Position numbers and translations under genes: made by a program
Origin: Candidatus Heimdallarchaeum aukensis
Lineage (GTDB): Archaea; Asgardarchaeota; Heimdallarchaeia; Heimdallarchaeales; Heimdallarchaeaceae
Assembly: GCA_021513695.1 (NCBI GenBank)
Contig: CP084166.1
Span: 640,001 to 704,000, forward strand
DNA: 64,000 bases
Reading direction: 5' to 3'
Notes under the pieces: generated by a model
What the model was told of the DNA's origin: nothing
The model's database searches: none
What the model saw: the letters and a program-made list of their open reading frames with translations, nothing else
Shown here: positions 7,052-58,354 of the stretch, piece after piece
Layout: each line of letters begins with the position of its first letter
Numbering within the stretch: position 1 is the stretch's first letter

Positions 7052-7930
7052 CTATAATTTACGAACAGTATTTTTTGTTATCTTTTCTTCTATGAAATTT
7101 ACAAGCAATTTTTCTAACTCTTTTCTTTTTTTTGCCAAAACAAAAACTCCGTTTCCTAGCATTATCTGACCTACATATAATTCAGAATAATCTTTGGATT
7201 GTTCTACTATCTCTTTTACTTTTGCTGTTTCCAAACCACATTTTTCAGTAAAGAATTGTATGTTCTTGGCAAAGACTGAAACAGAAGGATTTGCATATAA
7301 TTTGGACAGAACTTTTTTTCCAGCATTGATAATATTTTTCTTTTTTTCAGCATTTCGTATTATATCTTTAGTTTTTAGAGGACCAAAAGCTTTAGTAGCA
7401 ATAATATATTTCTCATCTTCAATCAAAGGTTCTGTTATTCCTATTCCCGGAGCTCCTTCTTTTCTTCGTAGCTCCCACCCAGCTTGATAAAGACCTATTA
7501 TATCTCCCAACCCTCCTCCTTCTTCTACTTCTGCAATGTGAGCTATCTGGAATATTTTTTCTTTAGATAAACCTAGATCGAAGAAATCATTTAAACAAAA
7601 AGATAAACTTAAAGCTCCTGCTGCACTTGCTCCAAATCCAGAAGAAAGGGGAACTTCAAAGGTATGAAACACATTTATATCTAGAAACTGTTTTTCTACT
7701 TTTAATAACTTGGCGAACTGAGTAAGTACATTTTCACTTACTTTTGCATCTTTTTTTTCAACTTCATCAAAATAAACATGATTTCCATCTTCTGAATGCT
7801 CAACTTCAGTTATTATTCCACGATTTATTGAAAAACCTGCTCCCTTCGACCCTACATATAAAGGGTTAGTTTGTTCATCACATATTTCAAATATTCCCGT
7901 AATATGTCCAGCTACCCAGTATTTTACCAA
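7052..7930 (-). CDS. GHMP-family kinase, probably archaeal pantoate kinase (coenzyme A biosynthesis)
   Basis: GHMP ATP-binding motif PLSSGFGASAAGALSLS. N-terminal VAGHITGIF resembles the PGHITGFF start of archaeal pantoate kinases (COG1829). The protein is 292 aa and lies directly downstream of a ketopantoate reductase homolog. Confidence 0.7.
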   Translation of the reverse strand: MVKYWVAGHITGIFEICDEQTNPLYVGSKGAGFSINRGIITEVEHSEDGNHVYFDEVEKKDAKVSENVLTQFAKLLKVEKQFLDINVFHTFEVPLSSGFGASAAGALSLSFCLNDFFDLGLSKEKIFQIAHIAEVEEGGGLGDIIGLYQAGWELRRKEGAPGIGITEPLIEDEKYIIATKAFGPLKTKDIIRNAEKKKNIINAGKKVLSKLYANPSVSVFAKNIQFFTEKCGLETAKVKEIVEQSKDYSELYVGQIMLGNGVFVLAKKRKELEKLLVNFIEEKITKNTVRKL

Positions 7931-7969: not shown

Positions 7970-8977
7970 TTATAATTTTACTACCGATTGAATAGCCTTC
8001 AATTCTATAGTTGCTTGTTCTCTTGTTGTTTTCTTCGATTCCAGCTCAATTATTAAGTTTACTAAATAGTTATTCAGAGGTAAAGTTAATCCTAGATTTT
8101 GTCCTAAACGAATTATTGCCCCATTTATACTATCAATCTCTGTTTTTACCCCCTTATTGATATCTTGAAGCATACTGCAATAGTTTGCAGAAGTTACATT
8201 AATTACTTCAAGAACTTTCTTGTAAGCTTCTTCGAAAGATATTTCAACAAATTCTTGTGCGACAGGAAGAATCTCTTTTATTAACCCTTTAACAACCTTT
8301 AACAAAAATTCATTTTCTTTTATTTTTCCATTTCTAATTCCTAAAATTGCTCCAATGGGGTTTATACATGAATTAACAATAGCTTTCATCCATACATCTT
8401 TTTGGATATTTTTTGATATTTCACATTCTAACCCTGATTTGCTTAATATCTCTTTCCAAAGAAGTATATTTGTTTGATCAGAATGATTAACAGGTCCAAT
8501 AAAAGTTTGACCTTTGGCTGTTTCTTCAATTATATTACCATCTTTTCTGTTTGAACCTATAGAAGAAACGGCTCTAGTAATTTTCCATTTAGGATTAGCT
8601 TTAACGTAAAATTTTTCATTTTCTAGTCCATTTTGAAAAATAAGAATAGAAGCATTTTCTAACAATACTTCTGCTAAATATGGAGCAAGAATTTTATTAT
8701 TATAACTTTTTGTGGCTACAATACACTTTGAAATTTTTCCTTTAAACTTTTCAGGCAAATTAGAAAAAACAGTAGGATAATAACGTTTTGGTGCAATGTT
8801 TTCTGATAGTTTCACTGATATTCCTTTTTCTAGTGCAAGTTGAGTTCCTCTTTCTGAAGTTAGACTAATACATTTGAAAATACCTAAAGAATCAATCCGT
8901 ACATAAAGAACGCTTCCGATTGCTCCAAGTCCTGCAACTAAAAGTAAAGGTTTGTTACTCACAGATATATAATTCAA
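7970..8977 (-). CDS. panE: 2-dehydropantoate 2-reductase (ketopantoate reductase, ApbA/PanE family)
   Basis: N-terminal Rossmann motif LLVAGLGAIGSVL. ApbA C-terminal-like motif NSCINPIGAILG. The protein is 335 aa. Confidence 0.75.
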   Translation of the reverse strand: MNYISVSNKPLLLVAGLGAIGSVLYVRIDSLGIFKCISLTSERGTQLALEKGISVKLSENIAPKRYYPTVFSNLPEKFKGKISKCIVATKSYNNKILAPYLAEVLLENASILIFQNGLENEKFYVKANPKWKITRAVSSIGSNRKDGNIIEETAKGQTFIGPVNHSDQTNILLWKEILSKSGLECEISKNIQKDVWMKAIVNSCINPIGAILGIRNGKIKENEFLLKVVKGLIKEILPVAQEFVEISFEEAYKKVLEVINVTSANYCSMLQDINKGVKTEIDSINGAIIRLGQNLGLTLPLNNYLVNLIIELESKKTTREQATIELKAIQSVVKL

Positions 8978-9023
8978 TACATAATAAAAAATTTTTATTT
9001 AGATACTAAATATTAGTGAGAGA

Positions 9024-11123
9024 ATGAGTAATACTGACAAAAAAATAGAGATTTTTAATAATCTTTTTTTAAAAATCAAAAAACAGATAATAGATAACCA
9101 GAGCAGTTCTAAACTTAAATTTGATGAAAGAGAAGTATTACTCAACTCATTTATTGTCTCAATAAAAACTCTTCTTATCAAAGAAATGTTTCTTAAGGAA
9201 GAAAAAGTTGAGATAGAAAAAAAAATTAATTTGAATTACTTTTTCATAGAATTAGATAATATCTTTAGAGAAATATTTACCGATGGCTCTTTCCGAAAAG
9301 CTGATTTAGAAATCATTAGAGAAAAATCAATACAACAACTGATTTTACAATACTTAGAAAGCAAAGACTCGATAATTATTGATTTAGCAGGAAAGGATTT
9401 ATTCTCTCAAATATATGAAACTGCCCTCAACAAAAATGAAAAAGATCAACTAGGCTTATTTTATACTCCTGAAATTATCGTTAATTATATCCTAAATTTA
9501 GTAAATTATAAGACTGATTCAGAAATTGTAAACAAAAAGATACTTGATCCAAGCTGTGGTTCAGGAAGTTTTCTAGTCAAATCTGTAAATAGGTTATTAC
9601 AAGCGTTAAAGAAAGAAAATTTAGAAGAAAGTGAAATTCTATACAAGATAAGAAATGCTGTTTTTGGTATAGACATTGATCCTATAGCTGTTTTTCTTTC
9701 TAAAACTAATATCCTATTCCAGATTTTTCCTTTATTTATCACCCTCTACAAAAAAAGAACTTTGACACAATTTCCTCCTTTGCATGTTTATTGTTTTGAT
9801 TCTCTAAACAAAAAAAGTAGAAATAAAGATACAACTTCTTTTAAGATTATTAATAGAGAAAAAGAGTTTACCTCAGGTTTTGATTTTATTGTTGGAAATC
9901 CTCCTTATATTGAATCTAAAAAAATGGATATTGAAACAAAGAAAAAATGTATAGAGAACTTTCCTGAAATTTGTAAAGGAGCTTTTGATATATACATCTG
10001 TTTTATTCAACTTGGTTTAGACTTACTTAGTGTAAATGGAAAGTTAGGTTTTATTATTCCAAACAAATTTCTTTCTGCTAACTATTCTAAAGCACTAAGA
10101 AAGAAGATTATCTATGAATTTGACATTCTACATCTAGTAGACCTTTCTTCTTCAAATATTTTTAAAAATGCAAGTGTTTATCCTATAATTATTTCAATTA
10201 AAAAAAGGAAATCTAAATCCGAAGGCATAAAAAATAACTTTTTGATAAGTAAAGTAGAAGGACAAATTACGAATATTGAGGAAATCAAAGGAATACCAAT
10301 AAATCAATCTTTTTTCAAAAAAACTGTTAATAACTTTATTTTTTCTTTTCCAAATGATTTAGACGAAGCAGAACTTGTAAAACGTTTAATTATGACTAGC
10401 CCTTTTAAACTTGGAGAATTCCTTAAGATTAGCTGGTCAGTTTCTTTCCATAGAAAAGGATTAAGAGAACAATTTGTTTTTACTAAAAATGTTGATGGTA
10501 ACTTTAGAAAAATTTTAGGTGGAAAGAAGTTTGGAGGAAATTCTGAAGTCAAAAGATATTTGATACAATGGGATGGTCATTGGATTGACTACAATAGAGA
10601 AAAAGCAAAAAGACTGAATAATCCCTTTCCTCCATTAAGTTTATTTAACAATGAAAAAATAATCATCTGTCAAAATAGCAAAAGAATTCGAGCTGTTCTA
10701 GACAAAGAAGGTTTCATTTGCAAAGATATTTTCTTTGTAGCTAAAATTACTCCAAAGACGCTAAATACAAGTCTAAATTATGAAGTGATATTATCTGTAA
10801 TTAATAGTAAACTAATGAGCTATTTATACGATAGAATTTTTTCTAGTACTCACGTTTCAGGAAGATATTTACACTATTTACCAACTTATTTACATTCACT
10901 TCCTTTTCCTAAACTGTCTGAAATAGAAAAAAAACAGTTACATGAGCTCACGAAGAAAATAATGAAAAAAGAGATAACAGAAAAGGATTTTATTAAAATA
11001 GATAAAGAAATTGATAAGATAATTTACAATGCATTTGGATTAGAAAATCATGAAATAGAAATAGTAGAAAAATATGTTTCATCGTATATGTCTTTAAAAA
11101 AATTAAAGGATATAAGAAAATAA
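9024..11123 (+). CDS. Gamma-class N6-adenine DNA methyltransferase (Eco57I/TaqI-like, 699 aa, with a large C-terminal target-recognition region). It may be an orphan or type IIG/IIL-like enzyme without a recognisable nuclease domain
   Basis: Motif X/I: LFYTPEIIVNYI ... ILDPSCGSGSFLV. Motif IV: FDFIVGNPPYIESKK. There are about 400 aa after motif IV. Confidence 0.85.
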   Translation: MSNTDKKIEIFNNLFLKIKKQIIDNQSSSKLKFDEREVLLNSFIVSIKTLLIKEMFLKEEKVEIEKKINLNYFFIELDNIFREIFTDGSFRKADLEIIREKSIQQLILQYLESKDSIIIDLAGKDLFSQIYETALNKNEKDQLGLFYTPEIIVNYILNLVNYKTDSEIVNKKILDPSCGSGSFLVKSVNRLLQALKKENLEESEILYKIRNAVFGIDIDPIAVFLSKTNILFQIFPLFITLYKKRTLTQFPPLHVYCFDSLNKKSRNKDTTSFKIINREKEFTSGFDFIVGNPPYIESKKMDIETKKKCIENFPEICKGAFDIYICFIQLGLDLLSVNGKLGFIIPNKFLSANYSKALRKKIIYEFDILHLVDLSSSNIFKNASVYPIIISIKKRKSKSEGIKNNFLISKVEGQITNIEEIKGIPINQSFFKKTVNNFIFSFPNDLDEAELVKRLIMTSPFKLGEFLKISWSVSFHRKGLREQFVFTKNVDGNFRKILGGKKFGGNSEVKRYLIQWDGHWIDYNREKAKRLNNPFPPLSLFNNEKIIICQNSKRIRAVLDKEGFICKDIFFVAKITPKTLNTSLNYEVILSVINSKLMSYLYDRIFSSTHVSGRYLHYLPTYLHSLPFPKLSEIEKKQLHELTKKIMKKEITEKDFIKIDKEIDKIIYNAFGLENHEIEIVEKYVSSYMSLKKLKDIRK

Positions 11124-11321
11124 CAGTTAACTGTTGTATAAGCTAATTTCTGCTTATAATGCAAAAATTCTATCTGATTATTTTTCAATGTCCTATCGTT
11201 ACTTATAATTTAAAAAGGTAAAAAATTAAAGGATTAAATGATTATTTCTCAAAATTAAAAAAAAGAGAAATAAATTATAAAAGAGTATTAACTCATATCT
11301 TTGTTTACTTTCTCTGTAACT

Positions 11322-11817
11322 TTATCTAAAACTCCTACCTATTAGTTTATCTTTATTATATAGCTCTATTTCTTCTTTGACAGTAAGTGGGCTTTCTTGT
11401 GATAAATCTTGTTTATTTATAAGAATTAACAATGGTTTTCTGCTATCCACTATTAAAAACATGTAATCCAAAGAAAAAACGAGAAACTTCAAACGCATCA
11501 CTTTCAGATGAAGGTTTTATTGTTCCATCAATAACATAAATAACTGCATCGGCTTGAGTTACTCCTAAAGCCAACAGACTTTCCCGATAAAGTTCTTGTC
11601 CTCCTACATCGATAGCTGATAACTCCCAATCAGCAATTTTTATAGGTTGTTACCTAATATCTATCCCAAGAGTAGTACGTGGATCATCTAACACTGATTT
11701 TCCCGTCTCTAACTATCTAACAAGAGTAGTTTTTCCCGCACCAAAAGCTCATAATAATACAATATTTGCTTCTTTAGAAATATTTTTCTTTAAAAAAATG
11801 CTTCCTAACCAACTCAT
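11322..11817 (-). pseudogene. Small Ras-superfamily GTPase (Arf/Rab/Rag-like) disrupted by four in-frame stops and one frameshift
   Basis: Minus-strand conceptual translation: MSWLGSIFLKKNISKEANIVLL*AFGAGKTTLVR*LETGKSV...IDVGGQELYRESLLALGVTQADAVIYVIDG...NSG*, then a frame shift, then PLLILINKQDLSQ. The P-loop, DxxGQ and NKxD motifs are intact. TGA, TAG and TAA stops all occur. No ORF of 60 aa or more is listed in this region. Confidence 0.6.
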
Positions 11818-11939
11818 TAAGCTCAGCTAAAAATTTAATCACTATTTTAAAAACATTCTTTCTTTCCAAATCACTAGTTTATCTGTTGTTTCATTTATTT
11901 CGGAAAAAGTTAAAATCATAAAAATATAAATTGTAATTA

Positions 11940-13670
11940 ATGTCAAAAAACCAAAGTAACTTAGATACTAATCTTAAACAAAAGAAAGAGCTGAATAGCG
12001 AAAAAAAGAAATCTACAAAAAAGAATAGTAAAAACAAAGAAAAATGGTATATTAGATGGTCATTCAACATTTTATCAGTTTTTTTTGCAATTATCTCATT
12101 GATTGGTAGTTTTATTTTACTAATTTACGACATTTTTGTTCCTCGAACATTAAGAGAACTAGTTCCGATTTTGAATATGTTTAGAAAATATATCTTAATT
12201 GCAGCAGAACTTTTTTCGGGTAAAAAAAGCAAAGAAGTAGCAGAAGTTGTTTCAGAGCTAGAAGAGATAAAAATGAAAGAAGAAAAAATAATGAAGAACT
12301 ATCCTATTCGTCGAGGAATAGGAGAGGCTATTAACCTTGGTCTTCATCCCGTAATCATTTTTGCTATTCCAACAGCAATATGGGGAAAAAATCTTCATCA
12401 ATTGTTTGAAAGTTGGGGAATACCTGTTTCATTAGGCATATTATTGTTTGGAACAGGTCTATTATGTATTTCTTGGATAGCTACCATATTTGGGCCTATT
12501 TACGCATTATTTCATGAGTGCAGTATCTTTATGCTCAAAAGAGGGTCTTATCGTTGGGCAGAATTTTTTCAAGATTTAGAGAACCTTTTTGCTTTACCTT
12601 ATTACACTGCGAGGTCTAGTTTCAGCATTCTTGATGCTCCACCTATCTCTGCTGAAACTCTTGAAGAATTCAAGCTTGATATAATGGATGACATCGGACA
12701 AATAAAAAATAGAATTGCAGATATTCTTTCTCTTGATGCCACTCAAGTTCCAGAAAGATCAAAACAAATGTTACAAGAATTGCTAATCGAAACTCAACAA
12801 TCACTAGGTTCTATTAACATATCTGAAATAAAAGAAGTAACAGCAAGACAATTTGCACTCCTTATTTGGAATAAAGAAGGATCAATGTTCCCATGGAGGA
12901 GAAATGAAGCTCTAGAAGAATTTGCGAAGAAAAACAACATGTCTGTAAAGGAAGCAAAAAAAACTATTCAACTCATTGCAAAGAAAGCAGTTGAAGGATT
13001 TACTTCTAAAGACTTGTATTTTAGTATAATGATAACTGGAGCTTTAAAAGGAATTGCTGAACTAGAAGAAAAATATAAACAATTCATGAGTGATATAGAA
13101 TATACTTCTACTGCACTTTCACTTTCTTTAGGGGCACAACAATACATCATAGATACTTTTACAGAAAAACCATTCTACAAGAAATTACTTAAGGTTCTTG
13201 TAGATAGTTTTATAGCACTATTCTTACCTTATATAATGTTACTTGTTGTTATTTTCAAATACTTTAAACATGTAGTAGGCCAAACGATAAGAAATATTGT
13301 TAGCATTAAAGACTTAAAAAAGAAGAAAATATTTAGGAACAAGATAAAAGAAATTAAAGAAACACTTTACAGTTCTTATCATTCAATAGGAGATTCAAAA
13401 TTTAGCCTAAAAGAGACCTTTGACATAGATTTTGGAGAATTTTTCAAAAAACTCGGTAAATTTTTCGTAAAAGTTCTACTTTTAGTTCCTCTCCTATTTT
13501 GGAGTCTAATAAAGGCTATCTACATAAGAATACAAAAGTTGTTGAGAAGAAGAACGGAAGAGGAAAAGAACAAGAGAAAGTTTGAGAAAGAATTAGCAAC
13601 AAAAACTTTAGTAGCAATGTACGAAGAACTCTATGAAAAAATTGTTTTAAGCAACTTGTACTATACATAG
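11940..13670 (+). CDS. Hypothetical membrane protein (K-rich N-terminus, several transmembrane helices, charged C-terminal tail)
   Basis: A 576-aa ORF with multiple hydrophobic helices (ILSVFFAIISLIGSFILLIY, VIIFAIPTAIWG, and others). No recognisable catalytic motif. Confidence 0.6.
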   Translation: MSKNQSNLDTNLKQKKELNSEKKKSTKKNSKNKEKWYIRWSFNILSVFFAIISLIGSFILLIYDIFVPRTLRELVPILNMFRKYILIAAELFSGKKSKEVAEVVSELEEIKMKEEKIMKNYPIRRGIGEAINLGLHPVIIFAIPTAIWGKNLHQLFESWGIPVSLGILLFGTGLLCISWIATIFGPIYALFHECSIFMLKRGSYRWAEFFQDLENLFALPYYTARSSFSILDAPPISAETLEEFKLDIMDDIGQIKNRIADILSLDATQVPERSKQMLQELLIETQQSLGSINISEIKEVTARQFALLIWNKEGSMFPWRRNEALEEFAKKNNMSVKEAKKTIQLIAKKAVEGFTSKDLYFSIMITGALKGIAELEEKYKQFMSDIEYTSTALSLSLGAQQYIIDTFTEKPFYKKLLKVLVDSFIALFLPYIMLLVVIFKYFKHVVGQTIRNIVSIKDLKKKKIFRNKIKEIKETLYSSYHSIGDSKFSLKETFDIDFGEFFKKLGKFFVKVLLLVPLLFWSLIKAIYIRIQKLLRRRTEEEKNKRKFEKELATKTLVAMYEELYEKIVLSNLYYT

Positions 13671-13676
13671 GATTTA

Positions 13677-14645
13677 CTAATCTGGAAGAAAGTCAGGGTG
13701 ATAAACAAGTTTATCCAGATCTCTAGGTGGAGCGTGAGCTAAAAATCCATCTTGATAAGCCAGAGGGTAAAAAGTTCGTACTCTAGAATAAAGTGTAGGA
13801 TAATCAATTATCATTACAATTTTGTTCTCTTGTGTAAGTAATTTTAGCAATGAAGTAACTTCTTCAATCACATTTTTAGGTCGTTTGATATTATTTAGAA
13901 AATAGACATCTTCTCTACCTATCCCATCTATTGCTTGCCTGTATTCATCGCTTTCAAGCAGAACTTCACCATTTTGAGGAATAACTAAAAAGCTTGGTTT
14001 CTTTGATTTTGCGTATTTACTGATTGAAATAACAAAATCAATCATTTCTTCTTTAGCTGTTGGTCTTTCATCTTCATAATACTCAAAAGCGTCTATAATG
14101 TCTAAATAACAACCGTCAAAACCTGCTGCAATAATTCTATCTAAATAACTTTCATTTGTTCCAAAAATAATCCTCTGCCATTCAGGATTCCAATATTTAA
14201 CTTTATAATTGCCCTCCCAATCAGGATTCTCAACATCTAGCCATTCAGGAGCATTATCATCAGGTATTCCATCATTATCTACATCCCAGCTATTATCCCA
14301 ATAAAAACGGTATGTTTCAGCTTCTCCTATACTCATATAACTGAGAAGTATTTTCTTTTCATTTCCTTCTCTCATGTATGAAACTTGACTATTATTATAT
14401 TCTAGTTCTTCACTTCCGTCTGCAGAGTAATCAATGATAATAAGGTCGTACTTGGAATTTGAAATTTCTTCAATGTCAATATTTTGAAGCTGATAGGCAA
14501 AATCATTAACAATAAATCCATTAACATTAAATTGTGGGGGGTTTTGAGTTTCCATATTGGGAAAATAGAAGAAATAAAAGTACAAACTTGTAATTATTAA
14601 AGAAAAAACAATTAAAAATATTAAAAATATGAAACGTTTTTTCAC
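13677..14645 (-). CDS. Membrane-anchored putative extracellular polysaccharide hydrolase (GH114/TM1410-like family)
   Basis: N-terminal transmembrane anchor. Motif GFDGCYLDIIDAFEYY, typical of the TM1410/COG2342 endo-alpha-1,4-polygalactosaminidase-like family. Confidence 0.55.
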   Translation of the reverse strand: MKKRFIFLIFLIVFSLIITSLYFYFFYFPNMETQNPPQFNVNGFIVNDFAYQLQNIDIEEISNSKYDLIIIDYSADGSEELEYNNSQVSYMREGNEKKILLSYMSIGEAETYRFYWDNSWDVDNDGIPDDNAPEWLDVENPDWEGNYKVKYWNPEWQRIIFGTNESYLDRIIAAGFDGCYLDIIDAFEYYEDERPTAKEEMIDFVISISKYAKSKKPSFLVIPQNGEVLLESDEYRQAIDGIGREDVYFLNNIKRPKNVIEEVTSLLKLLTQENKIVMIIDYPTLYSRVRTFYPLAYQDGFLAHAPPRDLDKLVYHPDFLPD

Positions 14646-14720
14646 ATGTGTGATATAGCTATTATCCTTTATTAGTTTTGAGAATGATTTTTATAGATTA
14701 ATTAATCCTCCAGTTAAAAG

Positions 14721-16052
14721 CTACTCCTCCGTCCTCAGATTCTCAACTTCTTCTGTCTCATAATTTCCTTCTTTTATAAATAGAAGAAAGAATGTACCTA
14801 TAAAATAGATAGATCCTGTAATGTAAAAAGCTAATTGGAAATTGAAGGGTTTATCGTATTTGTTTAGAATAACTCCTCCAATAGGTTGACTAATACTGTT
14901 AAAGGCTGTAAAAGCTAAAGCGTCAATAGCACTAAAAGTTGCTCTTTGACTAGAAGGTAAGAGATCCATTACTATAGCATTAATTAAAGGCCACCCAGCA
15001 TTCATAAAAGCCTGTCTAAGAATGTAGATAACAAGTACAACAGAGAAGGGAGGAATAAAAGCAAATCCAAAAATAAGAACTACAGCAATAAACTCTAAAA
15101 AGAAAACTGCTTTAGCACGACCAAATTTCTTAGCAAATCTTAAAGCAATGGCTGAAAGAATAGCAGTTATTAATGGAGCTAAAGAGAATATAAGTGTAAG
15201 TTCAGAAATTGTTCGACCATAAATTGCTTCAAAAAAGCGTGGAAGAAAAGGAATAGATATACCAGCTCCAAAAGCAATTAGAAAATCTGCTAGTACGATT
15301 ATTAAAGGAGTTCTATAGAATGATAATTTTTCTCTAAAGGTTTTACAGTTTTTATATTTAGATAAAATTAAAGCGTCTTTTTTCTTTTCTTCCAATATCT
15401 CTTTAGTCTCAATTTGACCTTTAGAGTGAATAGACCTTTTATCGTGAATAAAGAAACCTAAAAATGCTGCAAAGATTATTACTGAAGCATAGATTTTAAT
15501 CACAGGAAGAATAACTTCTTCAGAATAAAGATCACCTAAATACCTGTAGATAAAGAAACCTACAACACCACCAATAGCTGTACATAACTGTTGAATAATA
15601 GACATAATCGTAAAAATCTTTGTTCGTGTACCTTTAGTTGTACAATCAGCAACTAAAGCTGACCCTGCAGGCATCATTAAAGAATTAGCTAAAGCAAAAA
15701 GGAATTGAATTACATATAGATAGGTCAAAGAATTAGCAAAAAAGTAGATTATCATCCCAGCTATGAAAAGAAAATTTGAAATCCAGATGAAGGCATCTCT
15801 TCTCCATCTATCAGAAAGAATACCAGAGACAATTAATCCTATAATTCCTACTAAACTAGTTGTTCCAAAAATCAATCCTACATCTATGTCTGTACCTCCC
15901 CATACATACACTAAAAAGAGCGTAGCTATATAGAAAGGAGTTTGAACTAATGAATAAATTGCAAATGCTCCAAAATATAGTTTCAAATTCAGGTTTAAGT
16001 TCTTTAATAATGAGATTTGTGCTCTGATATTCGCCCCTATCATAGTCTCCAA
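14721..16052 (-). CDS. MFS transporter
   Basis: Twelve predicted transmembrane helices in a 6+6 arrangement with a central loop. Typical MFS hydrophobicity pattern. Confidence 0.8.
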   Translation of the reverse strand: METMIGANIRAQISLLKNLNLNLKLYFGAFAIYSLVQTPFYIATLFLVYVWGGTDIDVGLIFGTTSLVGIIGLIVSGILSDRWRRDAFIWISNFLFIAGMIIYFFANSLTYLYVIQFLFALANSLMMPAGSALVADCTTKGTRTKIFTIMSIIQQLCTAIGGVVGFFIYRYLGDLYSEEVILPVIKIYASVIIFAAFLGFFIHDKRSIHSKGQIETKEILEEKKKDALILSKYKNCKTFREKLSFYRTPLIIVLADFLIAFGAGISIPFLPRFFEAIYGRTISELTLIFSLAPLITAILSAIALRFAKKFGRAKAVFFLEFIAVVLIFGFAFIPPFSVVLVIYILRQAFMNAGWPLINAIVMDLLPSSQRATFSAIDALAFTAFNSISQPIGGVILNKYDKPFNFQLAFYITGSIYFIGTFFLLFIKEGNYETEEVENLRTEE

Positions 16053-16170
16053 CTCTTCGTTTATATAAATTTTTTAATGAATATAAAAACGTGTGTTAAT
16101 ACGAATAGTTTGACTATTAAACCAATCAATTAAAGCTAACAATTAAAAATATACAAATTTCAAAAAAATT

Positions 16171-16329
16171 CTACCTCTCTAACCAAATTTCTAAAGCTTC
16201 ACGTATCGTATCAAGAGCATCCTCAATATTTTCTGCGACTAGATCTCTTCTTTCTAAAAATGGACTGCTAATAAATAGAATATTATCTTCATCTTTTGAT
16301 ATCAGAATTGGTAATTCTTTTAATTGCAT
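16171..16329 (-). CDS. Small HicB/UPF0150-family (antitoxin-like) protein of 52 aa that is absent from the ORF track
   Basis: Manual translation: MQLKELPILISKDEDNILFISSPFLERRDLVAENIEDALDTIREALEIWLER. This matches the UPF0150/HicB N-terminal pattern (..EKDEDG.Y.a.fP.L.gc.t.G.TlEEAl.n.kEAlel.LE). No HicA partner is seen nearby. Confidence 0.5.
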   Translation of the reverse strand: MQLKELPILISKDEDNILFISSPFLERRDLVAENIEDALDTIREALEIWLER

Positions 16330-16436
16330 AACATTTGTATTGTATGAAGATATTTAAACCTAAAACCAGTTACTCTTTTTCGGATAACCAAACTTAAATA
16401 TTGTTACCGTTTTTGCTGAATTGACGAGGAATTAAA

Positions 16437-17525
16437 ATGGATTCAAGAAAAGGAGATAAAATTTATGGACCTATAATTGTTTCTGCAGCAAATGCAGCAA
16501 GATCTTTTGATGCACCAGTAAGATATCCTCTATTGTTCAACTCTCCAGACGTCTTTGTAAAACCAATGGCTATGCCCAGAGCTTCTTCTTTCATTACTTT
16601 AATTGAGCATTTTCTAGGATTGTTAATTTTATTACCAATTCTTCTAATAAAAAGAGGAACAAAGCAAGTTTTTGGTGTTTTCAAGGAGTTTGATAGAAGA
16701 GACTGGATTTCTTTAATTTTCATTTCTGCTGGTGGTTCAGCTTTAGGGTTATTTTTCTTCCTAATTTCATTGGGATTAGGAAACCCTACAGTAGCGATAT
16801 TAATTCAAAAATCTCAACCACTCATAACACTGATTTTTGCAATTTTTATATTAAAAGAGAAACCAAGTCTACGTTTCTACGTTGTTCTTCTATTAGCAAT
16901 AACTGGTATTGGTCTGATAGCTTGGCCAGATATTTCAAAAAGTGTTCAAACTCTAGAGTTTACAGGACTAATTGCCATTCTTTGCTCACTTTTAGCAGCT
17001 GTTTTTTGGGGTGGTAGCACAGTTTTTGGAAGAATATTAACAAAAAAAGTTGATTATTGGAATTTAACCCTATTTAGGTATATTGGAGGATTTTTCTTTT
17101 TATTGGTCTTCAATATTTTTACTTTCACCTATAACTCAACCTATTTTGGGCTGCTTACACAAAAAATAAATGTTTTTGGACATTATGTGGATGGGTCATT
17201 TGTTCCTTTAGATTGGCAGTGGATAGGAATCCTTTGTATTCTCTACGCAGCTATACTTACTGGAGGAGTGCTTCCTTTAGCTCTCTATTATTTTGGTCTC
17301 ACAAGGTCCAAAGCTTCAGTAGCAGGGCTGGCAGAACTAGCTTTCCCTATTCTATCGATATTTATTAATTATTATTTCTTGGGATTTGGGTTAGAACCAA
17401 TACAAATTGTAGGAGCAATAATATTATTAGCAAGCGTTTCAACACTATCTTACATTAATGCTAAAGAGTTTGAACGAGATCAACAAATTCTTTTAGAAAA
17501 AGATAGAATGAAAGAAAAAAATTAA
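16437..17525 (+). CDS. EamA/DMT-superfamily transporter (10 transmembrane helices)
   Basis: Two internally repeated five-helix halves, typical of EamA domains. Confidence 0.75.
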   Translation: MDSRKGDKIYGPIIVSAANAARSFDAPVRYPLLFNSPDVFVKPMAMPRASSFITLIEHFLGLLILLPILLIKRGTKQVFGVFKEFDRRDWISLIFISAGGSALGLFFFLISLGLGNPTVAILIQKSQPLITLIFAIFILKEKPSLRFYVVLLLAITGIGLIAWPDISKSVQTLEFTGLIAILCSLLAAVFWGGSTVFGRILTKKVDYWNLTLFRYIGGFFFLLVFNIFTFTYNSTYFGLLTQKINVFGHYVDGSFVPLDWQWIGILCILYAAILTGGVLPLALYYFGLTRSKASVAGLAELAFPILSIFINYYFLGFGLEPIQIVGAIILLASVSTLSYINAKEFERDQQILLEKDRMKEKN

Positions 17526-18583: not shown

Positions 18584-20170
18584 TTAAATTTTAGGCTCTA
18601 ATATTTCTCCTTTCGGATATTTTATGATATAGGAAATATTGATCTTTTCTTCTTTTCCTGGTTCAATAGATATTTTCCACTCCAACACTCCTTGATTCTG
18701 CTTTCTAGGTTCTGGAGAGATTTCCTTAGTGATTACCTCAATATTTGGATCTTGGGGATATGGAATTCGCTCTATTACTTTTAGTTCAGCTTTTTCTTCA
18801 ATTTGATTCTTAATTTTTATTTGATAGTGGAAGTCTATTTGTTCTTTTCCTTTAGTAATTCCTGCTTTTGCTACTTCTCGTTTGAGCAACTTTCTTTCTA
18901 TCTTCAAATCATAGCTTTCAATTAAACCAACAGTAAATTCATCTTTAGGATGGATTAAATCCAAGTGACTCTGACTAATAAATTCTCCATCAATGAAAAC
19001 TTTAGCATCTCCTTCCAATAAAAATTGATCTTCATTCTTTAATTTGTGAGTTAGAATAAGCTTTTCATCGAGAGAGCTCCAATAATACTGCTTTTCTACT
19101 TTTACTTTAAAGCTATCCAAGTACAAAGTTTTAGGTGTTTTTCCTGAAGGAATGTCATGCTTTCCACTAAGTTCAAACCTTTGGTGTCCTACTACACTTG
19201 TACTCTTAGCAGTTTCAACATAAAGATCGTCTAATTCTGCTTCAGGTACAGGAGCTGGAGCTGGCTTCATCAATTCTTTTTCAGCAATAGCCATAGCTTT
19301 AGGTCTCATAGCTCTTTTAACGCCATAATCTTGTTTCTTTACTCTAGATGCACTTACAGGATATACAGGTTCATATAAATAGAGGTATAAAGGATCAACT
19401 TCTTCAATTGAGATGGGTTTCCGATTAGCAGTAGAAATTGTAACTTTGGTCTTATCCCAATCAATTCTAGTCCTATTATAGACTTTAGCTAATCGTTGTA
19501 TTAGTGCTTCACCTTTAGTTAGTTCAATCATGTAAACAGGAGTCCATGAAGCTTGAGACACAGTATAGCTTAATTCTAATTCTATTTCACAATCTTCTTG
19601 AGCATCTAAAATAATATTTATCTCGTAAAACTCATTTTCAAGATATTGCATCTGATTCTTTTTTTCTTTTAGAGAATTAAGCAACTTATTTAATTCTATA
19701 ATTTCGTGCTCTAATTGAATTTTTTTAGCATTCTCAGCCTCTATTTGACTTTGATAGAAAGAATAATACTCTCGAAAATCATCAACAGTTTTATTCTTAA
19801 TCATTCCATAGCGACCAAATCCTTCTGCAATACTCTTAATGGTAGTTGTAAGGGCGTTAATTGAAACCTTCAAAGATTCTAACCTTAAGTTCCTCTGTTC
19901 GATTTCTTTTTCTGTCTTCAAGATTTCTTTCTCAATTTCAATTAAATTTTCTTCATCTCTATAGATGTGCTGGAGAACAGGAGAAATATCAACAAGTTTA
20001 ACTTTACCAGTCCCTCTAACTTTTATAGAATCCTCATCTAAAAACTCAGATAATTCAGTAACAGTTAAAGTTTGCTCGCCTTTTACTAATTTAACCTTTT
20101 TCTGTCTTGTAATTAAAGCTCCATCAGTTAAAACAGTTACTTCTTTGATTGGAAGAGTTATTTTCTTCAT
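18584..20170 (-). CDS. Conserved hypothetical protein of the DUF4140/DUF4139 family (central coiled coil)
   Basis: The N-terminus (LPIKEVTVLTDGALITRQKKVKL..GEQTLTV..LSEFLDEDSIKVRG) resembles DUF4140. It also has a long central coiled coil and a beta-rich C-terminus. Confidence 0.55.
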   Translation of the reverse strand: MKKITLPIKEVTVLTDGALITRQKKVKLVKGEQTLTVTELSEFLDEDSIKVRGTGKVKLVDISPVLQHIYRDEENLIEIEKEILKTEKEIEQRNLRLESLKVSINALTTTIKSIAEGFGRYGMIKNKTVDDFREYYSFYQSQIEAENAKKIQLEHEIIELNKLLNSLKEKKNQMQYLENEFYEINIILDAQEDCEIELELSYTVSQASWTPVYMIELTKGEALIQRLAKVYNRTRIDWDKTKVTISTANRKPISIEEVDPLYLYLYEPVYPVSASRVKKQDYGVKRAMRPKAMAIAEKELMKPAPAPVPEAELDDLYVETAKSTSVVGHQRFELSGKHDIPSGKTPKTLYLDSFKVKVEKQYYWSSLDEKLILTHKLKNEDQFLLEGDAKVFIDGEFISQSHLDLIHPKDEFTVGLIESYDLKIERKLLKREVAKAGITKGKEQIDFHYQIKIKNQIEEKAELKVIERIPYPQDPNIEVITKEISPEPRKQNQGVLEWKISIEPGKEEKINISYIIKYPKGEILEPKI

Positions 20171-52698: not shown

Positions 52699-52707
52699 GT
52701 GATAGAG

Positions 52708-53637
52708 ATGAAAATCAAACTTAACACTATAAAAGGAGAAAAAGAAATATCTCTGAAAAAAAATCAGCATATAATTGATCTTTCGAATATGAATCTTTTA
52801 ACTATAAATTTAGATTTTTTGGAAGAATTACCAAATGTTGAAGCAATAAACCTGTCAAATAACAGTTTATCCAGGTTAGATTTAACCCCAATAGAAAACT
52901 GTTCTAACTTATCTTCTCTACGTTTATCTAATAATAATTTAGTCAAAATTAGACTAGAACCGCTAAGAAATTGTCCCAATCTCGAGATATTAGATTTATC
53001 AAACAATCAGCTTACAGAAATCGATTTATCTCCTATTATATCTTGTACTATGATCAAATCTCTTAATCTATCTTTCAATAAGTTAGAGTCTATAGATCTT
53101 TCTCCTCTTTCTCTTTTCCCTAATCTACGAACGCTTAATATTTCCAATAATAGACTTACCTTCGTCAACTTAAAAAAGATAGTTTTCTGCATTGCACTCA
53201 AAGAGCTAGATATTTCAAACAATAATTTCAGAACTTTAGATTTAACTCCAATTTTTGGTTTTAGAAATTTGGTTCGTTTATACTTATCTGAAAATGAAAA
53301 AAAAGTAGCTGACTGGGATGTTTCCTACTTAAAATATCAACAATTGTCAAGTGGTTTAAGATATTATTTTCAAGAGATTAAAAAACAAAACCTGAAAGTT
53401 CAAAGAAATGATATTTTCAAGAAAGTACTAGAAAAATACATATCAATCAGGCTTTCAAAACTAGCCATATTTCTCGGATTCGATGAATTAATAGATTTAG
53501 AAAATTGGATTTTGGGTTTAAATTTGAATAATGTCACCATAAAAGGGAATTATTTGCTGATAGATCAATCAGTTTATGTTGACATAGATAAGGAAATGAA
53601 TAAATTAATGCAAAGTTTTGACGGGTTAAATAGATAA
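52708..53637 (+). CDS. Leucine-rich repeat (LRR) protein
   Basis: Eight or more tandem 22-24-aa LRRs (LxxLxLSNNxLxxIDLSPIxxC). The C-terminal module is described above. The ATG at 52708 is preferred over the GTG at 52699. Confidence 0.8.
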   Translation: MKIKLNTIKGEKEISLKKNQHIIDLSNMNLLTINLDFLEELPNVEAINLSNNSLSRLDLTPIENCSNLSSLRLSNNNLVKIRLEPLRNCPNLEILDLSNNQLTEIDLSPIISCTMIKSLNLSFNKLESIDLSPLSLFPNLRTLNISNNRLTFVNLKKIVFCIALKELDISNNNFRTLDLTPIFGFRNLVRLYLSENEKKVADWDVSYLKYQQLSSGLRYYFQEIKKQNLKVQRNDIFKKVLEKYISIRLSKLAIFLGFDELIDLENWILGLNLNNVTIKGNYLLIDQSVYVDIDKEMNKLMQSFDGLNR

Positions 53638-54126: not shown

Positions 54127-54372
54127 ATGGAAAATATTATCGAAGCAAAGGATATTACAAAAACTTACAACGGAAAAACAATTCTGAATAAACTTTCATT
54201 TCAAGTCAAAAAAGGAGAATTATTCACATTAATTGGCCATAACGGTGCAGGAAAAACAACTCTTTTCAAGATTCTTACAGGACAAATTAAACAAGATAGT
54301 GGTACAGCAAGAATCTTTGATACTAATGTTGAATCGCAATTAAAGAGTAAGTATAAATTACGTATCAGCTAT
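54127..54372 (+). pseudogene. ABC transporter ATP-binding protein, N-terminal fragment interrupted by an IS insertion
   Basis: Walker A GHNGAGKTT ... RISY, then sequence unrelated to ABC ATPases. The conserved continuation VPQADLLWDNLTIKEN reappears at 56217. Confidence 0.8.
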
Positions 54373-56216
54373 GATTTACTTTTTTACGTAAAGTTTTTCG
54401 CACTCTGTCTTGCAAGAGAGAAAACTAAAGGAAGTTTAATCTCTTGAACTCAACCAAGCCATACAATGCCATGAAGGGGTTGAGACAGACATCATACACG
54501 AAACGTGGGAATCATAAAGAAGAATAGAAAGTTTTTCTTTCTTTTCTTCACTCCACGAGAGACAAAAAAAAGAATTACTCCTATAATAGAGAAGGAGTTA
54601 CTTTCCTTTTTGTCTACTGGGACTGCAACCAATGGCTGAGCCCTCGGCAAACAGTGAAATGGGAAGAACTGAACCTTTGACCAGTGAGGTAATCAGTGAT
54701 AGTTGTTCCTCGAGGACGAAAAAGATCTCCAAGGAACTTACGAGCGATATTCATTGCTCCTGTGAGGTCAGAGTGGAAAGTGTAATTGCAAGAGGAGCAA
54801 TGAACTAAACCTCTTACTGGACGGATAACTTTCCTTCCACAACGAGCACAGTGAGAAGATGTCCCTCTTTCATTCATTGTTAATATTCGGTGAGGTTCAA
54901 AACCTCGAAGTATCAATGCCCGACGGAGAAGAGCAAGAATAAGAGAAAAGTTCCACCGATGAAGTTTCCTGCGAAACTTACGAGTACTTTTACCTTTTCC
55001 TTTCTCCTCACGAACATGTTTAGGATAACCTACAACGACGAAAAGGTCATATATTCGCGCATAAGTCTCTATCGTCTGCACGATGTCGCTTACAAATTGG
55101 TAAATATAGGCTCGTTTAACGTTTCTATATCTTCTTCGGAGGAGACTAAGAAAACGATAAACTTGGTGTTTTTTACCCGACTGGTCATTTAAAGCCGCTT
55201 TCCTCTGAAGACGGGAAAGTTTGAGTTTATATCGATGATTGACTCTATTCCACTGTTTGGTATACCAGAACTTTATCTCTTTGTTTGTTAATTTCTTTTT
55301 AGGGGTCAGTAACACTCCTGTAGCAGGAATGTTTATCCCTATATCTATTCCCAGCACAGCTGGGGGAAGAGAAGAAGAACTTTTTTCTTCAGGAGGATAA
55401 AAAGAAGAAGGAAGAACTTTTAATTGGAAATACACCCACCACTCACGTGTAGAACGTTTATATCTTAGTTCTAGACTTTTTATTCTTCCTTTCTTTAACT
55501 CCTTCTGGTGGAAATCACTCATCTCTAAAGGTAACCATATTTTCTGATGATAAGGGGTGTTTCTTTTCCACGTATCTAACGAGTCTCTTATCCCCACCCA
55601 CCAACGAGTGAGAGTGTTATTCTTCTCTTTTGGTAGATGAACGAGAATGAACCTCTTTGCATTAATTAGTTGTTTTCTAGCTCTCTTTATTGGAGGACGA
55701 GTATTGTTAGGCCTATACCCTTGTTCATATAGTTGCACGCCTATATCTCTACATTCTTGGAATTCATTGTGAGAACAATAAAGGAACATTTTCTTAAGAT
55801 CGTGAGGAACAGTCTTTCTTCTCTCTTCTTCTTTAACTTTTGAAGTAGTTAGCGTCAGTTCATCTAGTTTTCCTCTATGTACTCTTATTTTCCCTCTCTT
55901 AGTTTTAGTACATATTTTTCCTCTGTTATGATGTATTATTCTCACATACTTCTCTATTATCCTCGTGTCTCTCCCCGTTATTCTCCTTAACTTTTCCTTC
56001 TTCCTCGTCGTCAATACCTCATTCTTTATTCTCACTTTCAAGGTTTTGACGACGTCCTCCATCTTTCTCTTTTCTCCTTCTTTCCTCTTTTTTTGTTTCT
56101 TCTTCTCTTTTTTATTCTACTTTTTTTCCCTATAAAAACCCCTCCCCTTCTTCTCTTCCCTTTTTTCTCTCTACATCTTCCTCAACAATTATAAATTACG
56201 CAAAAAATAGACGCAT
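54373..56216 (-). mobile_element. IS200/IS605-family element carrying only tnpB (IS1341-like) inserted into an ABC ATPase gene. It is GC-rich relative to the host
   Basis: Joining 54372 to 56217 restores a perfect ABC ATPase reading frame (..RISY|VPQADLLW..). The 1844-bp insert carries only tnpB. GC content is clearly higher than the flanks. Confidence 0.8.
54614..56062 (-). CDS. tnpB: TnpB (OMEGA) RuvC-like RNA-guided endonuclease
   Basis: RuvC-I AVLGIDIGINIPATGV. RuvC-III plus zinc finger NERGTSSHCARCG...HCSSCNYTFHSDLTGAMNIARKF. The protein is 482 aa. Confidence 0.85.
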   Translation of the reverse strand: MEDVVKTLKVRIKNEVLTTRKKEKLRRITGRDTRIIEKYVRIIHHNRGKICTKTKRGKIRVHRGKLDELTLTTSKVKEEERRKTVPHDLKKMFLYCSHNEFQECRDIGVQLYEQGYRPNNTRPPIKRARKQLINAKRFILVHLPKEKNNTLTRWWVGIRDSLDTWKRNTPYHQKIWLPLEMSDFHQKELKKGRIKSLELRYKRSTREWWVYFQLKVLPSSFYPPEEKSSSSLPPAVLGIDIGINIPATGVLLTPKKKLTNKEIKFWYTKQWNRVNHRYKLKLSRLQRKAALNDQSGKKHQVYRFLSLLRRRYRNVKRAYIYQFVSDIVQTIETYARIYDLFVVVGYPKHVREEKGKGKSTRKFRRKLHRWNFSLILALLRRALILRGFEPHRILTMNERGTSSHCARCGRKVIRPVRGLVHCSSCNYTFHSDLTGAMNIARKFLGDLFRPRGTTITDYLTGQRFSSSHFTVCRGLSHWLQSQ

Positions 56217-56951
56217 GTTCCACAAGCAGATCTTCTTTGGGATAATCTAACTATAAAAGAAAACATCTCTCTAATGGGTAATCTTTATGGATTAAAGAAA
56301 GCACAAATTGAAGAAAAAGCAAACAAATTTCTTACTGATTTTAATTTGGTTGAACATCAAAAAAAACTTGCTGATAAACTGTCTGGAGGTATGAAAAAGA
56401 AATTATCAATTGCTATGTCTTTGATGAATGATCCATTACTTCTATTTTTAGATGAACCAACTACAGGACTTGATGTTGAAGCAAGAACTTTGTTAATTGA
56501 AGATTTGAAAAGGCTGAAAGAAGAAGGAATAACCATTATTCTTACTACCCATTTAATGGAAGTAGCAGAATCACTAGCGTCAAAAGTTTTAATCATCGAC
56601 AAAGGACAAGTAGTTGCATTTGGAACAGTAGAGAATATAATTAATGAATCTATAGGTGATAAAATCCTCCAAGTAGGATTAATCAAAAGAAATAATGAAT
56701 TTGAAGATTTTATTGAAAAAGAAATCAAACATTCAAAAGAAGTCGATTATATTCAAATCAAACAAACATTTTTCTTCAAGGGAGAAAAGTTACCAGAACT
56801 TATACAAGTAATTTCTTCTTCTGAATTTATTAAAGACATCTATGAAATTAACATTAAAAAAAGTTCTCTAAAGGAAGCTTTTCTCTTTATTACTCATAAA
56901 ATTTACAAGAATGGGAATAACTTTAATTCTTTACTGGAGGTTCAAAAATGA
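56217..56951 (+). pseudogene. ABC transporter ATP-binding protein, C-terminal fragment separated from its N-terminal part by the tnpB element
   Basis: VPQADLLWDNLTIKEN..., signature LSGGMKKKLSIA, Walker B LLFLDEPTTGLD, H-loop TTHLMEV. The annotated ATG at 56274 is internal. Confidence 0.8.
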
Positions 56952-58354
56952 TCTTATACCTTACTCTTATTCGAATAAAACAGATAATCAGAGAAAAGGA
57001 ATTTTACTTTTATGTAATAGTTTTTCCATTATTCTTCTTAATTCTATTTGGTTTTCTTAGTTCAAGCTGGGTACAAACAACAACAACTATTCCTATTGGA
57101 TACATTTCTGAAGATTTAGGAATTAGTGATGATATCCTTAACGAAACAATAATGTTTGATGAAGCATTCTACAATTTCTTGAACAAACACCACTTAGAAA
57201 ATAATATCAAAACTTTCGAGATACATAATTATACAGAAGTAAATTCTTTGGAAAATGATATCAACAATAGAATTATCGATGGAGGAATAGTAATTCCTTT
57301 CGATTTTTCAGAACAAATGCTTAACATATCAAGGTTTTACAGTTCTCTTATTCTAGTTAATTTCCTTGGGAGTCAATTTAATACTTATGCTTCAGAATCT
57401 GCTAATATTTCTGCAGCTATTAACTCTCTTTCATCTCATCTTCAAGGAACAGCTAATTTATCTTTACTTTTCTATGGTGATATAACAATCGACACAGCTA
57501 TGACTTCTTATTCTGTTCTTTGGCAAGTGATAAACGACTATGTTCAAAACACAACTCTTTCTTACACTGAAAAGATTTGGAAGGTTATTAAGAATGAATT
57601 CGATCTATCTTTCAATTTCTCTTCTACAAGTAATGATTCTTCGCAAAACTCTATAACCTATAGTATTATCGTAGTTGATTCTGGAACAGGAGAATTAGTT
57701 ACCAACTTCAGAAAAGAATATATTTCCAATATCCTTCCAGGTCAAATTATACAAAGCATCCTAATGTCTTCAATCTCTGTAATATGGTTGACTGAAATGG
57801 AAGAACGAAAAGAAATTTTAAAACGATTAAAATTGACTAAACTTACTGCTGGAGGATATATAGGAAGTATAATTCTCGCATGGGGAACTATTGCTTTACT
57901 TCAAGGTTTATTTTTGATTACTGTTTCTGCTGTGCTTGGATTCTTCAGTTTTTCTGTTGGTCCATTAGCTTGGTTGATGACTATTTTGACCTTAGTTTTT
58001 CTAGGTTTCATTACTGCAACTATTTCTTTACTTGTGACAAGTTTCATTAAACCTCGAACGGCAACTCCAATATTAGTTCTTTCTAGTACTGTTCTGGCTA
58101 TGTTTGTAGGAGAATATTTCTTTCAAGTTAAACCTGCTTTTACTTTTGCAAAGAAAAACTTTACTTGGTTAGACATATTTCCTGTTCGACCAGCTTTCCT
58201 TGTTATGAAGAATGCTCTATTATTAGGAAAAAATGGAGACATCACTATTTTGCTTTTTGACTTTGCTCTTGTTGTTTTATGGACAATTTTAATATTTGCC
58301 ATAAGTAGTTTCGCTTTTAGCAAACTAAAACTCAAATATATAGAAAAAGAATGA
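56948..58354 (+). CDS. ABC-2 family transporter permease (partner of the disrupted ATPase)
   Basis: N-terminal transmembrane helix, large external domain, five C-terminal transmembrane helices. The start overlaps the ATPase stop (ATGA). Confidence 0.75.
   Translation: MILYLTLIRIKQIIREKEFYFYVIVFPLFFLILFGFLSSSWVQTTTTIPIGYISEDLGISDDILNETIMFDEAFYNFLNKHHLENNIKTFEIHNYTEVNSLENDINNRIIDGGIVIPFDFSEQMLNISRFYSSLILVNFLGSQFNTYASESANISAAINSLSSHLQGTANLSLLFYGDITIDTAMTSYSVLWQVINDYVQNTTLSYTEKIWKVIKNEFDLSFNFSSTSNDSSQNSITYSIIVVDSGTGELVTNFRKEYISNILPGQIIQSILMSSISVIWLTEMEERKEILKRLKLTKLTAGGYIGSIILAWGTIALLQGLFLITVSAVLGFFSFSVGPLAWLMTILTLVFLGFITATISLLVTSFIKPRTATPILVLSSTVLAMFVGEYFFQVKPAFTFAKKNFTWLDIFPVRPAFLVMKNALLLGKNGDITILLFDFALVVLWTILIFAISSFAFSKLKLKYIEKE

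Follow-up and report, generated by a model that had tools for sequence, protein, structure and literature searches.

The closest described relatives of the gene considered here are the Arf-family GTPases of Asgard archaea, termed ArfR by Vargova et al. (bioRxiv 10.1101/2024.02.28.582541) and AArf by Zhu et al. (PMC11914678) and exemplified by HodArfR1 and GerdArfR1 (PDB 8OUK-8OUN). Some of these proteins show GTP-dependent binding to membranes via an N-terminal amphipathic helix, and the interswitch toggle of Arf proteins is shared (bioRxiv 10.1101/2024.02.28.582541; PMC11914678). The native regulators of the Asgard Arfs have been stated to be unknown (PMC11914678), and a possible role of Heimdallarchaeial longins as partners of ArfR has been put forward (PMC12290439). 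Our subject is the damaged remains of such a gene on the minus strand of a 64,000-nucleotide stretch of Candidatus Heimdallarchaeum aukensis (contig CP084166.1, positions 640,001 to 704,000), which is referred to below as the window and whose own numbering is used throughout. A preliminary description had pointed to a decaying eukaryote-like small GTPase in this Asgard genome, and that view was borne out, the GTPase being specifically of the Arf family. The element is almost certainly a non-functional, decaying unitary pseudogene of an ArfR-type GTPase that still sits at its ancestral locus: intact homologs are known from elsewhere, and the window copy has been disabled by three nonsense codons, a frameshift and a deletion that truncates it.

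The relic, its family and its lesions

Translated from its ATG at 11817, the relic reads MSWLGSIFLKKNISKEANIVLL, a stop, AFGAGKTTLVR, a stop, LETGKSVLDDPRTTLGIDIR, a stop and QPIKIADWELSAIDVGGQELYRESLLALGVTQADAVIYVIDGTIKPSSESDAFEVSRF, after which a +1 shift gives SLDYMFLIVDSRKPLLILINKQDLSQESPLTVKEEIELYNKDKLIGRSFR and a final stop. It retains 163 codons of an ancestral ~188-191, from the original ATG to a TAA (11324-11322) that was created by the deletion. With its stops masked, the protein matched the Pfam Arf profile (PF00025) at 48.5 bits (E 9.2e-13; cut-off 22.3), against 29.4 bits for SRPRB and 21.0 bits for Ras (under its cut-off of 21.6), and Roc also scored below Arf. A search of 5.8 billion proteins produced 170 homologs, the best of which was the intact 188-amino-acid (aa) protein P0001 (81% identity, E 3.4e-78), so the similarity to small GTPases is far beyond chance. 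Where homologs carried names, these were "ADP-ribosylation factor-like protein" or "GTP-binding protein", from Heimdallarchaeota, Hodarchaeota or the Asgard group, and the homologs listed were, with few exceptions, 186-198 aa long. The intact ortholog scored 86.1 bits with Arf, 39.4 with Ras and 22.3 with Gtr1_RagA. In searches of the PDB, HodArfR1 (8oul_A) was the first match both of the intact ortholog alone (E 3e-18) and of the family profile (E 1.2e-25, full length), and the best 60 matches of the family profile were all Arf, Arl or Asgard ArfR proteins, with Arl1 and Arl3 close behind HodArfR1 and no Rab, Rag or MglA chain among them. Because the ortholog and the profile found Arf proteins only, with HodArfR1 first, the relic is classed from these matches as an Arf-family GTPase of ArfR type. 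The comparison with Arf, Rab, Rag and MglA proposed in the preliminary description was thus settled for Arf; membership of the Rab/Ras, Rag/Gtr and MglA groups was rejected, since Ras and Gtr1_RagA scored far under Arf and the 60 best structures held none of these proteins.

Like the Asgard ArfRs, the family of the relic has GxxxAGKTT, DVGGQ, NKQD and SAK motifs, a length of ~190 aa and a short hydrophobic-basic N-terminal extension. Its intact members carry GASGAGKTT, DVGGQE, NKQD and SAK, the extension MSWLSRIFGRKK and the C-terminal consensus ..NI(I/L)PSSAK(F/Y)G.G(I/V)E.A..WL..KI... The family is confined to Heimdallarchaeia, and its identity to HodArfR1 is only moderate, which makes it a distinct ArfR subfamily. 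The extension, MSWL(S/G)(R/S)IF(G/L)(R/K)K, is less amphipathic than that of Arf1, its hydrophobic moment being 0.43 in the family and 0.38 in the relic versus 0.70 in Arf1. The likeness to eukaryotic Arl1, Arl3 and Arf1 (PF00025) lies in an Arf match above the gathering score and in Arl1 and Arl3 structures that score near the Asgard ArfRs. The differences are that the relic's family has no Gly2 for myristoylation and that this is an archaeal gene which, in related genomes, forms an operon-like pair with a gene for a longin/pseudo-GTPase protein. The ancestral gene would have encoded a GTP/GDP switch of ~190 aa, including the extension, and its role, by analogy with other ArfRs, may have been nucleotide-dependent membrane association.

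The window copy, by contrast with the Asgard ArfRs, is no working GTPase, owing to three nonsense codons, a frameshift, the loss of G5 and the C-terminus, and the replacement of five invariant residues (Table 1). Conservation was judged against 113 intact homologs of 185-200 aa, with positions conserved in at least 98% of them taken as invariant. On this measure 5 of 47 invariant positions were replaced in the relic (Gly23 by a stop, Ser25Phe, Trp82Leu, Phe116Leu and Leu120Phe), compared with 0 of 53 in intact homologs, and codon 23 corresponds to a Gly that is invariant across all 113. In the same alignment the relic ended at family position ~163, so that nothing remained of the G5 SAK motif or of the C-terminal helix. 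With two hits in G1, the loss of G5 and a G4 that is out of frame, only G3 (DVGGQE) and the GAGKTT core are untouched; the relic has neither the intact GxxxxGK[ST] of an Arf G1 P-loop nor in-frame G4 NKxD and G5 SA(K/T). The preliminary statement that all motifs were intact therefore did not hold, given a TGA at the first P-loop Gly, Ser25Phe, Trp82Leu and the missing G5 SAK with ~25 C-terminal residues. No functional GTPase is possible, because translation from the original ATG ends after 22 residues, before the P-loop lysine.

Four stops had been counted in the preliminary description. Three of them (TGA, TAG and TAA) are independent lesions, and the second TAG is a mere consequence of the frameshift. 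The frameshift had been correctly placed before NKQD: it is a +1 T, and deleting one T of the T6 run restores the reading frame. What that list had missed was a deletion of ~1.1 kb, which removed G5 together with the neighbouring gene. It was recognised by alignment to the corresponding locus of Candidatus Heimdallarchaeum endolithica (L001), in which window 11876-11327 aligned to L001 5924-6471 (79% identity) and window 11337-11268 to L001 7573-7643 (82% identity). The window thus joins, at 11327/11337, L001 position 6471 to position 7573, and ~1.1 kb of the H. endolithica sequence is missing. The lost DNA comprised the last ~25 GTPase codons, which specified the G5 SAK and the C-terminal helix, as well as the spacer between the genes and ~333 codons of a downstream gene, the partner gene discussed below. 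Past the junction the window reads GVLDKVTEKVNKDMS and a stop in the third frame, matching the C-terminus of the H. endolithica partner, LLEFLDKITEKVKKEMG and a stop. A microhomology of ~10 bp is common to both breakpoints (AGGAGTTTTA in the window and AGAATTTTT at both L001 ends), and the event was for this reason read as slippage- or microhomology-mediated. Judged from the alignments, it is a deletion in the lineage of the window and not an insertion in H. endolithica, because the C-terminus that the GTPase has lost is invariant across the family and the downstream gene occupies the same position in metagenome-assembled genomes (MAGs) of distant Heimdallarchaeota.

Based on these lesions, a course of decay can be proposed. 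The ancestor shared with H. endolithica would have had, on the same strand and 15-50 bp downstream of the ArfR gene, a partner gene of ~349 aa. In the lineage of the window the pair was disabled, in whatever order, by three nonsense changes (Gly23 to TGA, Tyr35 to TAG and Gln56 to TAA), a slippage that added one T to the T-run, and the microhomology-flanked deletion of ~1.1 kb, through which GTPase codon ~163 became joined to the final 16 codons of the partner.

Table 1. Positions of the pseudogene, its motifs and lesions, and the related genes (window coordinates unless a locus is named).
Feature	Position	Strand	Evidence or remark
Arf-family (ArfR-type) GTPase pseudogene	11322..11817	-	Translation; Pfam Arf; 81% identity to intact 188-aa P0001
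Nonsense lesion 1: TGA, codon 23, first P-loop Gly of GxxxxGK[ST]	11749..11751	-	GGC in L002, GGG in H. endolithica
P-loop remainder GAGKTT	11725..11742	-	GASGAGKTT of relatives is stop-AFGAGKTT in the relic
Nonsense lesion 2: TAG, codon 35	11713..11715	-	Tyr in relatives (TAC or TAT)
Nonsense lesion 3: TAA, codon 56	11650..11652	-	Gln in relatives (CAA)
G3/switch II DVGGQE, unbroken	11593..11610	-	Trp82 codon after it (11574-11572) is now Leu
Frameshift lesion: T6 run versus T5 in both relatives (+1 T between ...SRF and SFDYM...)	11474..11479	-	DNA alignment gap
Second TAG, secondary to the frameshift	11443..11445	-	First stop met out of frame beyond the 1-nt insertion
G4 NKQD, kept, out of frame with the start codon	11406..11417	-	Behind the +1 frameshift
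Deletion junction, ~1.1 kb, ~10 bp microhomology	11327..11337	-	DNA alignment of window and L001
Remnant of downstream partner gene: last ~16 codons (...GVLDKVTEKVNKDMS) and stop codon	11288..11337	-	82% nucleotide identity to 3' end of H. endolithica partner
Upstream intergenic region shared with divergent 576-aa gene	11818..11939	-	Three-way alignment
H. endolithica ArfR ortholog, pseudogene	L001 5983-6548		Annotated as P0100, 123-aa "50S ribosome-binding GTPase"
H. endolithica partner gene, multi-lesion pseudogene	L001 6572-7610		Annotated as 300-aa hypothetical protein; homology across three frames
Partner representative P0121	L006 9819-10865		Homologs P0122-P0152; intact pair (GCA_011364945.1), ArfR gene at L006 9229-9804

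Related lineages and the history of loss

The locus in H. endolithica PR6 (CP084167.1, locus L001) is syntenic with the window, its gene order being an MFS transporter gene, a GH114 gene, a 576-aa gene, the Arf gene, an open reading frame (ORF) of ~300 aa, a 699-aa methyltransferase gene and ApbA. Identity between window and H. endolithica was ~85-89%, and the average nucleotide identity of H. endolithica and H. aukensis has been given as 88% (Wu et al., PMC8813620). The H. endolithica ArfR gene, with 79% nucleotide identity to the relic, is likewise a pseudogene fragment, and the public name of its product P0100 is a generic mislabel of that fragment. Its lesions are unlike those of the window copy, consisting of Gly5 to TGA, a 1-nt deletion near codon 127 and Glu148 to TAA, and it is also changed at the conserved sites Gly26Val, Gly72Asp and Ser162Ile. 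Unlike the window copy, it still has the G5 SAK region, and the partner gene beside it can be recognised despite multiple frameshifts. A profile search of genome contigs with the family alignment produced 10 loci, none of them from the genome of the window itself, and among which H. endolithica was represented by the pseudogene locus only.

An intact gene was found in a third lineage, represented by the metagenome contigs L002 and L003, where P0001 is encoded beside the same 576-aa gene (91% aa identity). On L003 no partner lies directly downstream of the intact ArfR gene; the DNA there matches neither the window nor H. endolithica, and synteny breaks. A search of metagenome contigs with P0001 returned only the contig already known and two distant GTPases. 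The three lineages are roughly equidistant, their nucleotide identities being 85-88% for the flanking gene and 79-81% for the ArfR gene.

The ratio of nonsynonymous to synonymous substitution rates (omega, Nei-Gojobori) in the ArfR gene was 0.076 between the window and the intact lineage and 0.139 between the window and H. endolithica, and in the flanking gene it was 0.04-0.07. Since the pairwise values are far below 1, most of the divergence accumulated under purifying selection. Among lineage-unique changes, nonsynonymous ones (with stops) over synonymous ones numbered 23/26 in the window and 22/20 in H. endolithica, and the intact lineage, with 9/30, differed from each (Fisher p = 0.026 and 0.011, respectively; neutral ratio expectation 3.45). 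The lineage-specific ratio is thus raised about three-fold in the decaying copies, and constraint on the window copy is relaxed. On a crude reading, that copy has been drifting over about one fifth of its terminal branch.

No lesion is common to the two species, which indicates that the gene was probably inactivated independently in each of them after their split, recently relative to species divergence and yet long enough ago for five disabling lesions to have accrued. The recent inactivation that had been surmised at the outset thus stands in this relative sense, with pairwise omega at 0.08-0.14 and no lesion shared with the sister species. Because the three lineages could not be rooted, parallel loss is argued here from the lack of common lesions and from the low omega of the pairs, not from a tree. 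The strongest competing history, although an improbable one, is that a single silencing, through, for example, a regulatory change or the loss of a required interactor, preceded the split of Heimdallarchaeum and that the visible lesions were added later in each lineage. It would suit the facts that both sequenced sister genomes are broken at the same locus, with the partner lost or broken in both, and that the intact-ArfR lineage likewise has no partner immediately downstream on L003. However, the two copies have no lesion in common, and their omega is 0.14 where about 1 would be expected had both drifted since before the split; in addition, the gene of the roughly equidistant third lineage is intact, with changes at 0 of 53 invariant positions, and all three lineages retain a promoter-like block. 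Independent inactivation in the two species is accordingly the history preferred here.

Other readings of the lesions

That block is an AT-rich sequence, TTTGGAA...AATGTTTTTAAAA, at about 11870-11845, kept in all three lineages in a three-way alignment, and it may be a TATA-type archaeal promoter; ~30 bp further upstream that are present in both relatives are absent from the window. Given its conservation, the relic may still be transcribed, which tempers the reading of the locus as dead. Further caveats are that synonymous divergence (dS) was 0.6-1.2 in all comparisons, near saturation, so that timing estimates are rough, and that read support was checked by proxy only, via an independent assembly probably derived from the same sequencing project.

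The retained promoter-like block, and a 58-aa gene called here in the Logan annotation, are what would speak for a residual function of the relic as a small protein (the candidate being a 59-aa ORF at 11322-11501) or as a regulatory or antisense RNA. We regard this as very improbable, because the 59-aa ORF is the out-of-frame tail of the GTPase (the NKQD segment) running to the stop created by the deletion, the region matches no Rfam family, and H. endolithica is disrupted differently in the same region.

It is slightly less probable still that the gene is intact in the organism and that its stops and frameshift are sequencing or assembly errors, such as the homopolymer errors of long reads. 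One lesion is indeed a change in homopolymer length (T6 versus T5), and Nanopore data were used in the assembly or scaffolding of the published Heimdallarchaeum genomes (PMC8813620). Three base substitutions and a deletion of 1.1 kb, however, are atypical error types, invariant residues have been replaced and the nonsynonymous to synonymous ratio raised, and the sister species decays at the same locus. Moreover, the Logan assembly of run SRR15988954 contains a 25-kb contig that is 100% identical to window 8940-16670 (7,731 bp), without gaps and with all of the lesions, and that encodes the exact 576-aa neighbour protein. As this independent assembly is identical, assembly artefacts are ruled out as the source of the lesions.

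In archaea TGA can encode selenocysteine and TAG pyrrolysine, and the frameshift lies in a slippery T-run, yet the notion that the stops are read through (as these residues or by suppressor tRNAs) and the frameshift is programmed, such that a functional GTPase is still made, has practically no chance of being right: all three stop types are present, and 113 homologs have Gly, Tyr and Gln at these positions, never Cys or Lys, the neighbours are long standard-code ORFs, the window has no tRNA gene and the gap no Rfam element, and the physical deletion of the G5 motif and C-terminal helix effectively refutes it. A code-25-style reading of TGA as Gly, suggested by the Gly at that position, was likewise rejected, since TAG and TAA also interrupt the gene and the neighbours use the standard code; long standard-code ORFs throughout the window contradict sense decoding of TGA, TAG and TAA alike. 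The relic is best regarded, then, as a true pseudogene.

The partner gene and the surroundings of the locus

The gene lost with the GTPase C-terminus belongs to a family of 32 members, all from Heimdallarchaeota or unnamed metagenomes, for which no match was found in Pfam or NCBIfam. In seven other Heimdallarchaeota loci a member of ~349 aa lies 15-50 bp downstream of an ArfR gene of this subfamily, on the same strand. An AlphaFold2 model of the partner (pLDDT 87) combined a longin domain with a long helix and a G-domain fold that resembles Arf but lacks a P-loop, and the invariant residues of the family are Gly58-Pro59-Leu60-Pro61, Arg86 and Arg114. Several loci have the cluster ArfR, three unknown genes, ArfR, partner. 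On L006 (6001-10868; also on L007 and L008) it comprises six genes, two ArfR paralogs flanking genes of 229, 283 and 298 aa and then the partner, while the Heimdallarchaeum locus has one ArfR and the partner, its ArfR being 73-74% identical to the first cluster paralog and 67-71% to the second.

In eukaryotes, longin proteins of FLCN/Lst4/NPRL2/SMCR8 type serve as GTPase-activating proteins (GAPs) for Rag and Arf GTPases. The systems with which the lost gene was compared were the longin GAP subunits (FLCN/FNIP-Lst4, NPRL2/3 and C9orf72-SMCR8), the Asgard longin proteins (PMC12290439) and the Roadblock-Longin protein 8YQG of Lokiarchaeota. Because the two genes are co-located and have jointly decayed in two species, the partner protein would be a reasonable candidate for a native partner or regulator of ArfR, a hypothesis to which the model lends its fold. 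A stronger proposal, which is tentative and to which we give somewhat less than even weight, is that ArfR and the ~349-aa gene formed a functional two-gene module in which the second gene provided an Arf-family GTPase with a native Asgard regulator or an obligate partner; on the predicted fold, it could have acted as a longin GAP or guanine nucleotide exchange factor in the style of FLCN/Lst4, or as a Rag-like heterodimer partner. Since both genes also decay independently in H. endolithica, the ArfR/partner module appears to be dispensable in the genus. How the partner was linked to ArfR in function, and why the module could be dispensed with, are matters that we infer.

The unannotated gap of about 800 bp beside a methyltransferase in which the relic had been reported proved to be a stretch of 816 bp without a long ORF (11124-11939). 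It is flanked by the gene for a 699-aa methyltransferase of Eco57I/N6_Mtase/TaqI_C type (9024-11123, + strand) and by that for a 576-aa predicted membrane protein (11940-13670, + strand) with no match in Pfam or NCBIfam. Rfam searches of the 816 bp found no RNA family, a tRNA scan found no tRNA gene in the window, and a tblastn search of the 64-kb window with the relic revealed no second copy or paralog, other matches being weak P-loop similarities (E at least 0.29). The window has a GC content of 30%. The 576-aa gene and the ArfR locus are divergently transcribed, an arrangement kept in all three Heimdallarchaeum-like lineages, and it is intact and strongly constrained (omega 0.04-0.07). A homolog of its product, 52% identical, is encoded ~5 kb from the ArfR gene of L004. 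A DUF4140/DUF4139 protein is encoded ~7 kb from the relic (window 18584-20170, - strand), and one with the same domains (L004 6724-8349) lies directly downstream of the intact ArfR P0002 in another MAG, so this may be a recurrent neighbourhood.

Elsewhere in the window, the gene for an ATP-binding cassette (ABC) transporter ATPase is apparently split. Its pieces at 54127-54447 (+ strand) and 56274-56951 (+ strand) correspond to ABC_tran profile positions 1-63 and 81-137, respectively, and lie ~1.8 kb apart, and between them is encoded a TnpB-like protein of 482 aa with a Cas12f1-like TNB domain (54614-56062, - strand). The cognate ABC-2 permease gene is at 56948-58354, and a 312-aa leucine-rich-repeat protein (LRR_8/LRR_4, E 3e-23) is encoded next to the disrupted locus (52699-53637, + strand). 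A TnpB-like insertion into the ABC ATPase gene would make this a second disrupted gene in the window.

Pseudogenes are common, and the patchy distribution of ArfR in Asgard archaea implies frequent loss. Taken alone, the relic is ordinary gene loss in an evolutionarily interesting family. Its broader relevance is that it catches ArfR loss in progress, and in parallel, in two close species with complete or near-complete genomes, where this ArfR subfamily would be dispensable under the conditions of both. The H. endolithica fragment, annotated as a "50S ribosome-binding GTPase", is a caution for reconstructions of gene content that count fragments. In addition, the deletion points to the longin and pseudo-GTPase protein encoded by the co-lost neighbour as a testable candidate for the native partners of Asgard Arfs, and if the two genes did form a module, their co-decay in two Heimdallarchaeum species would be a signature of functional coupling.

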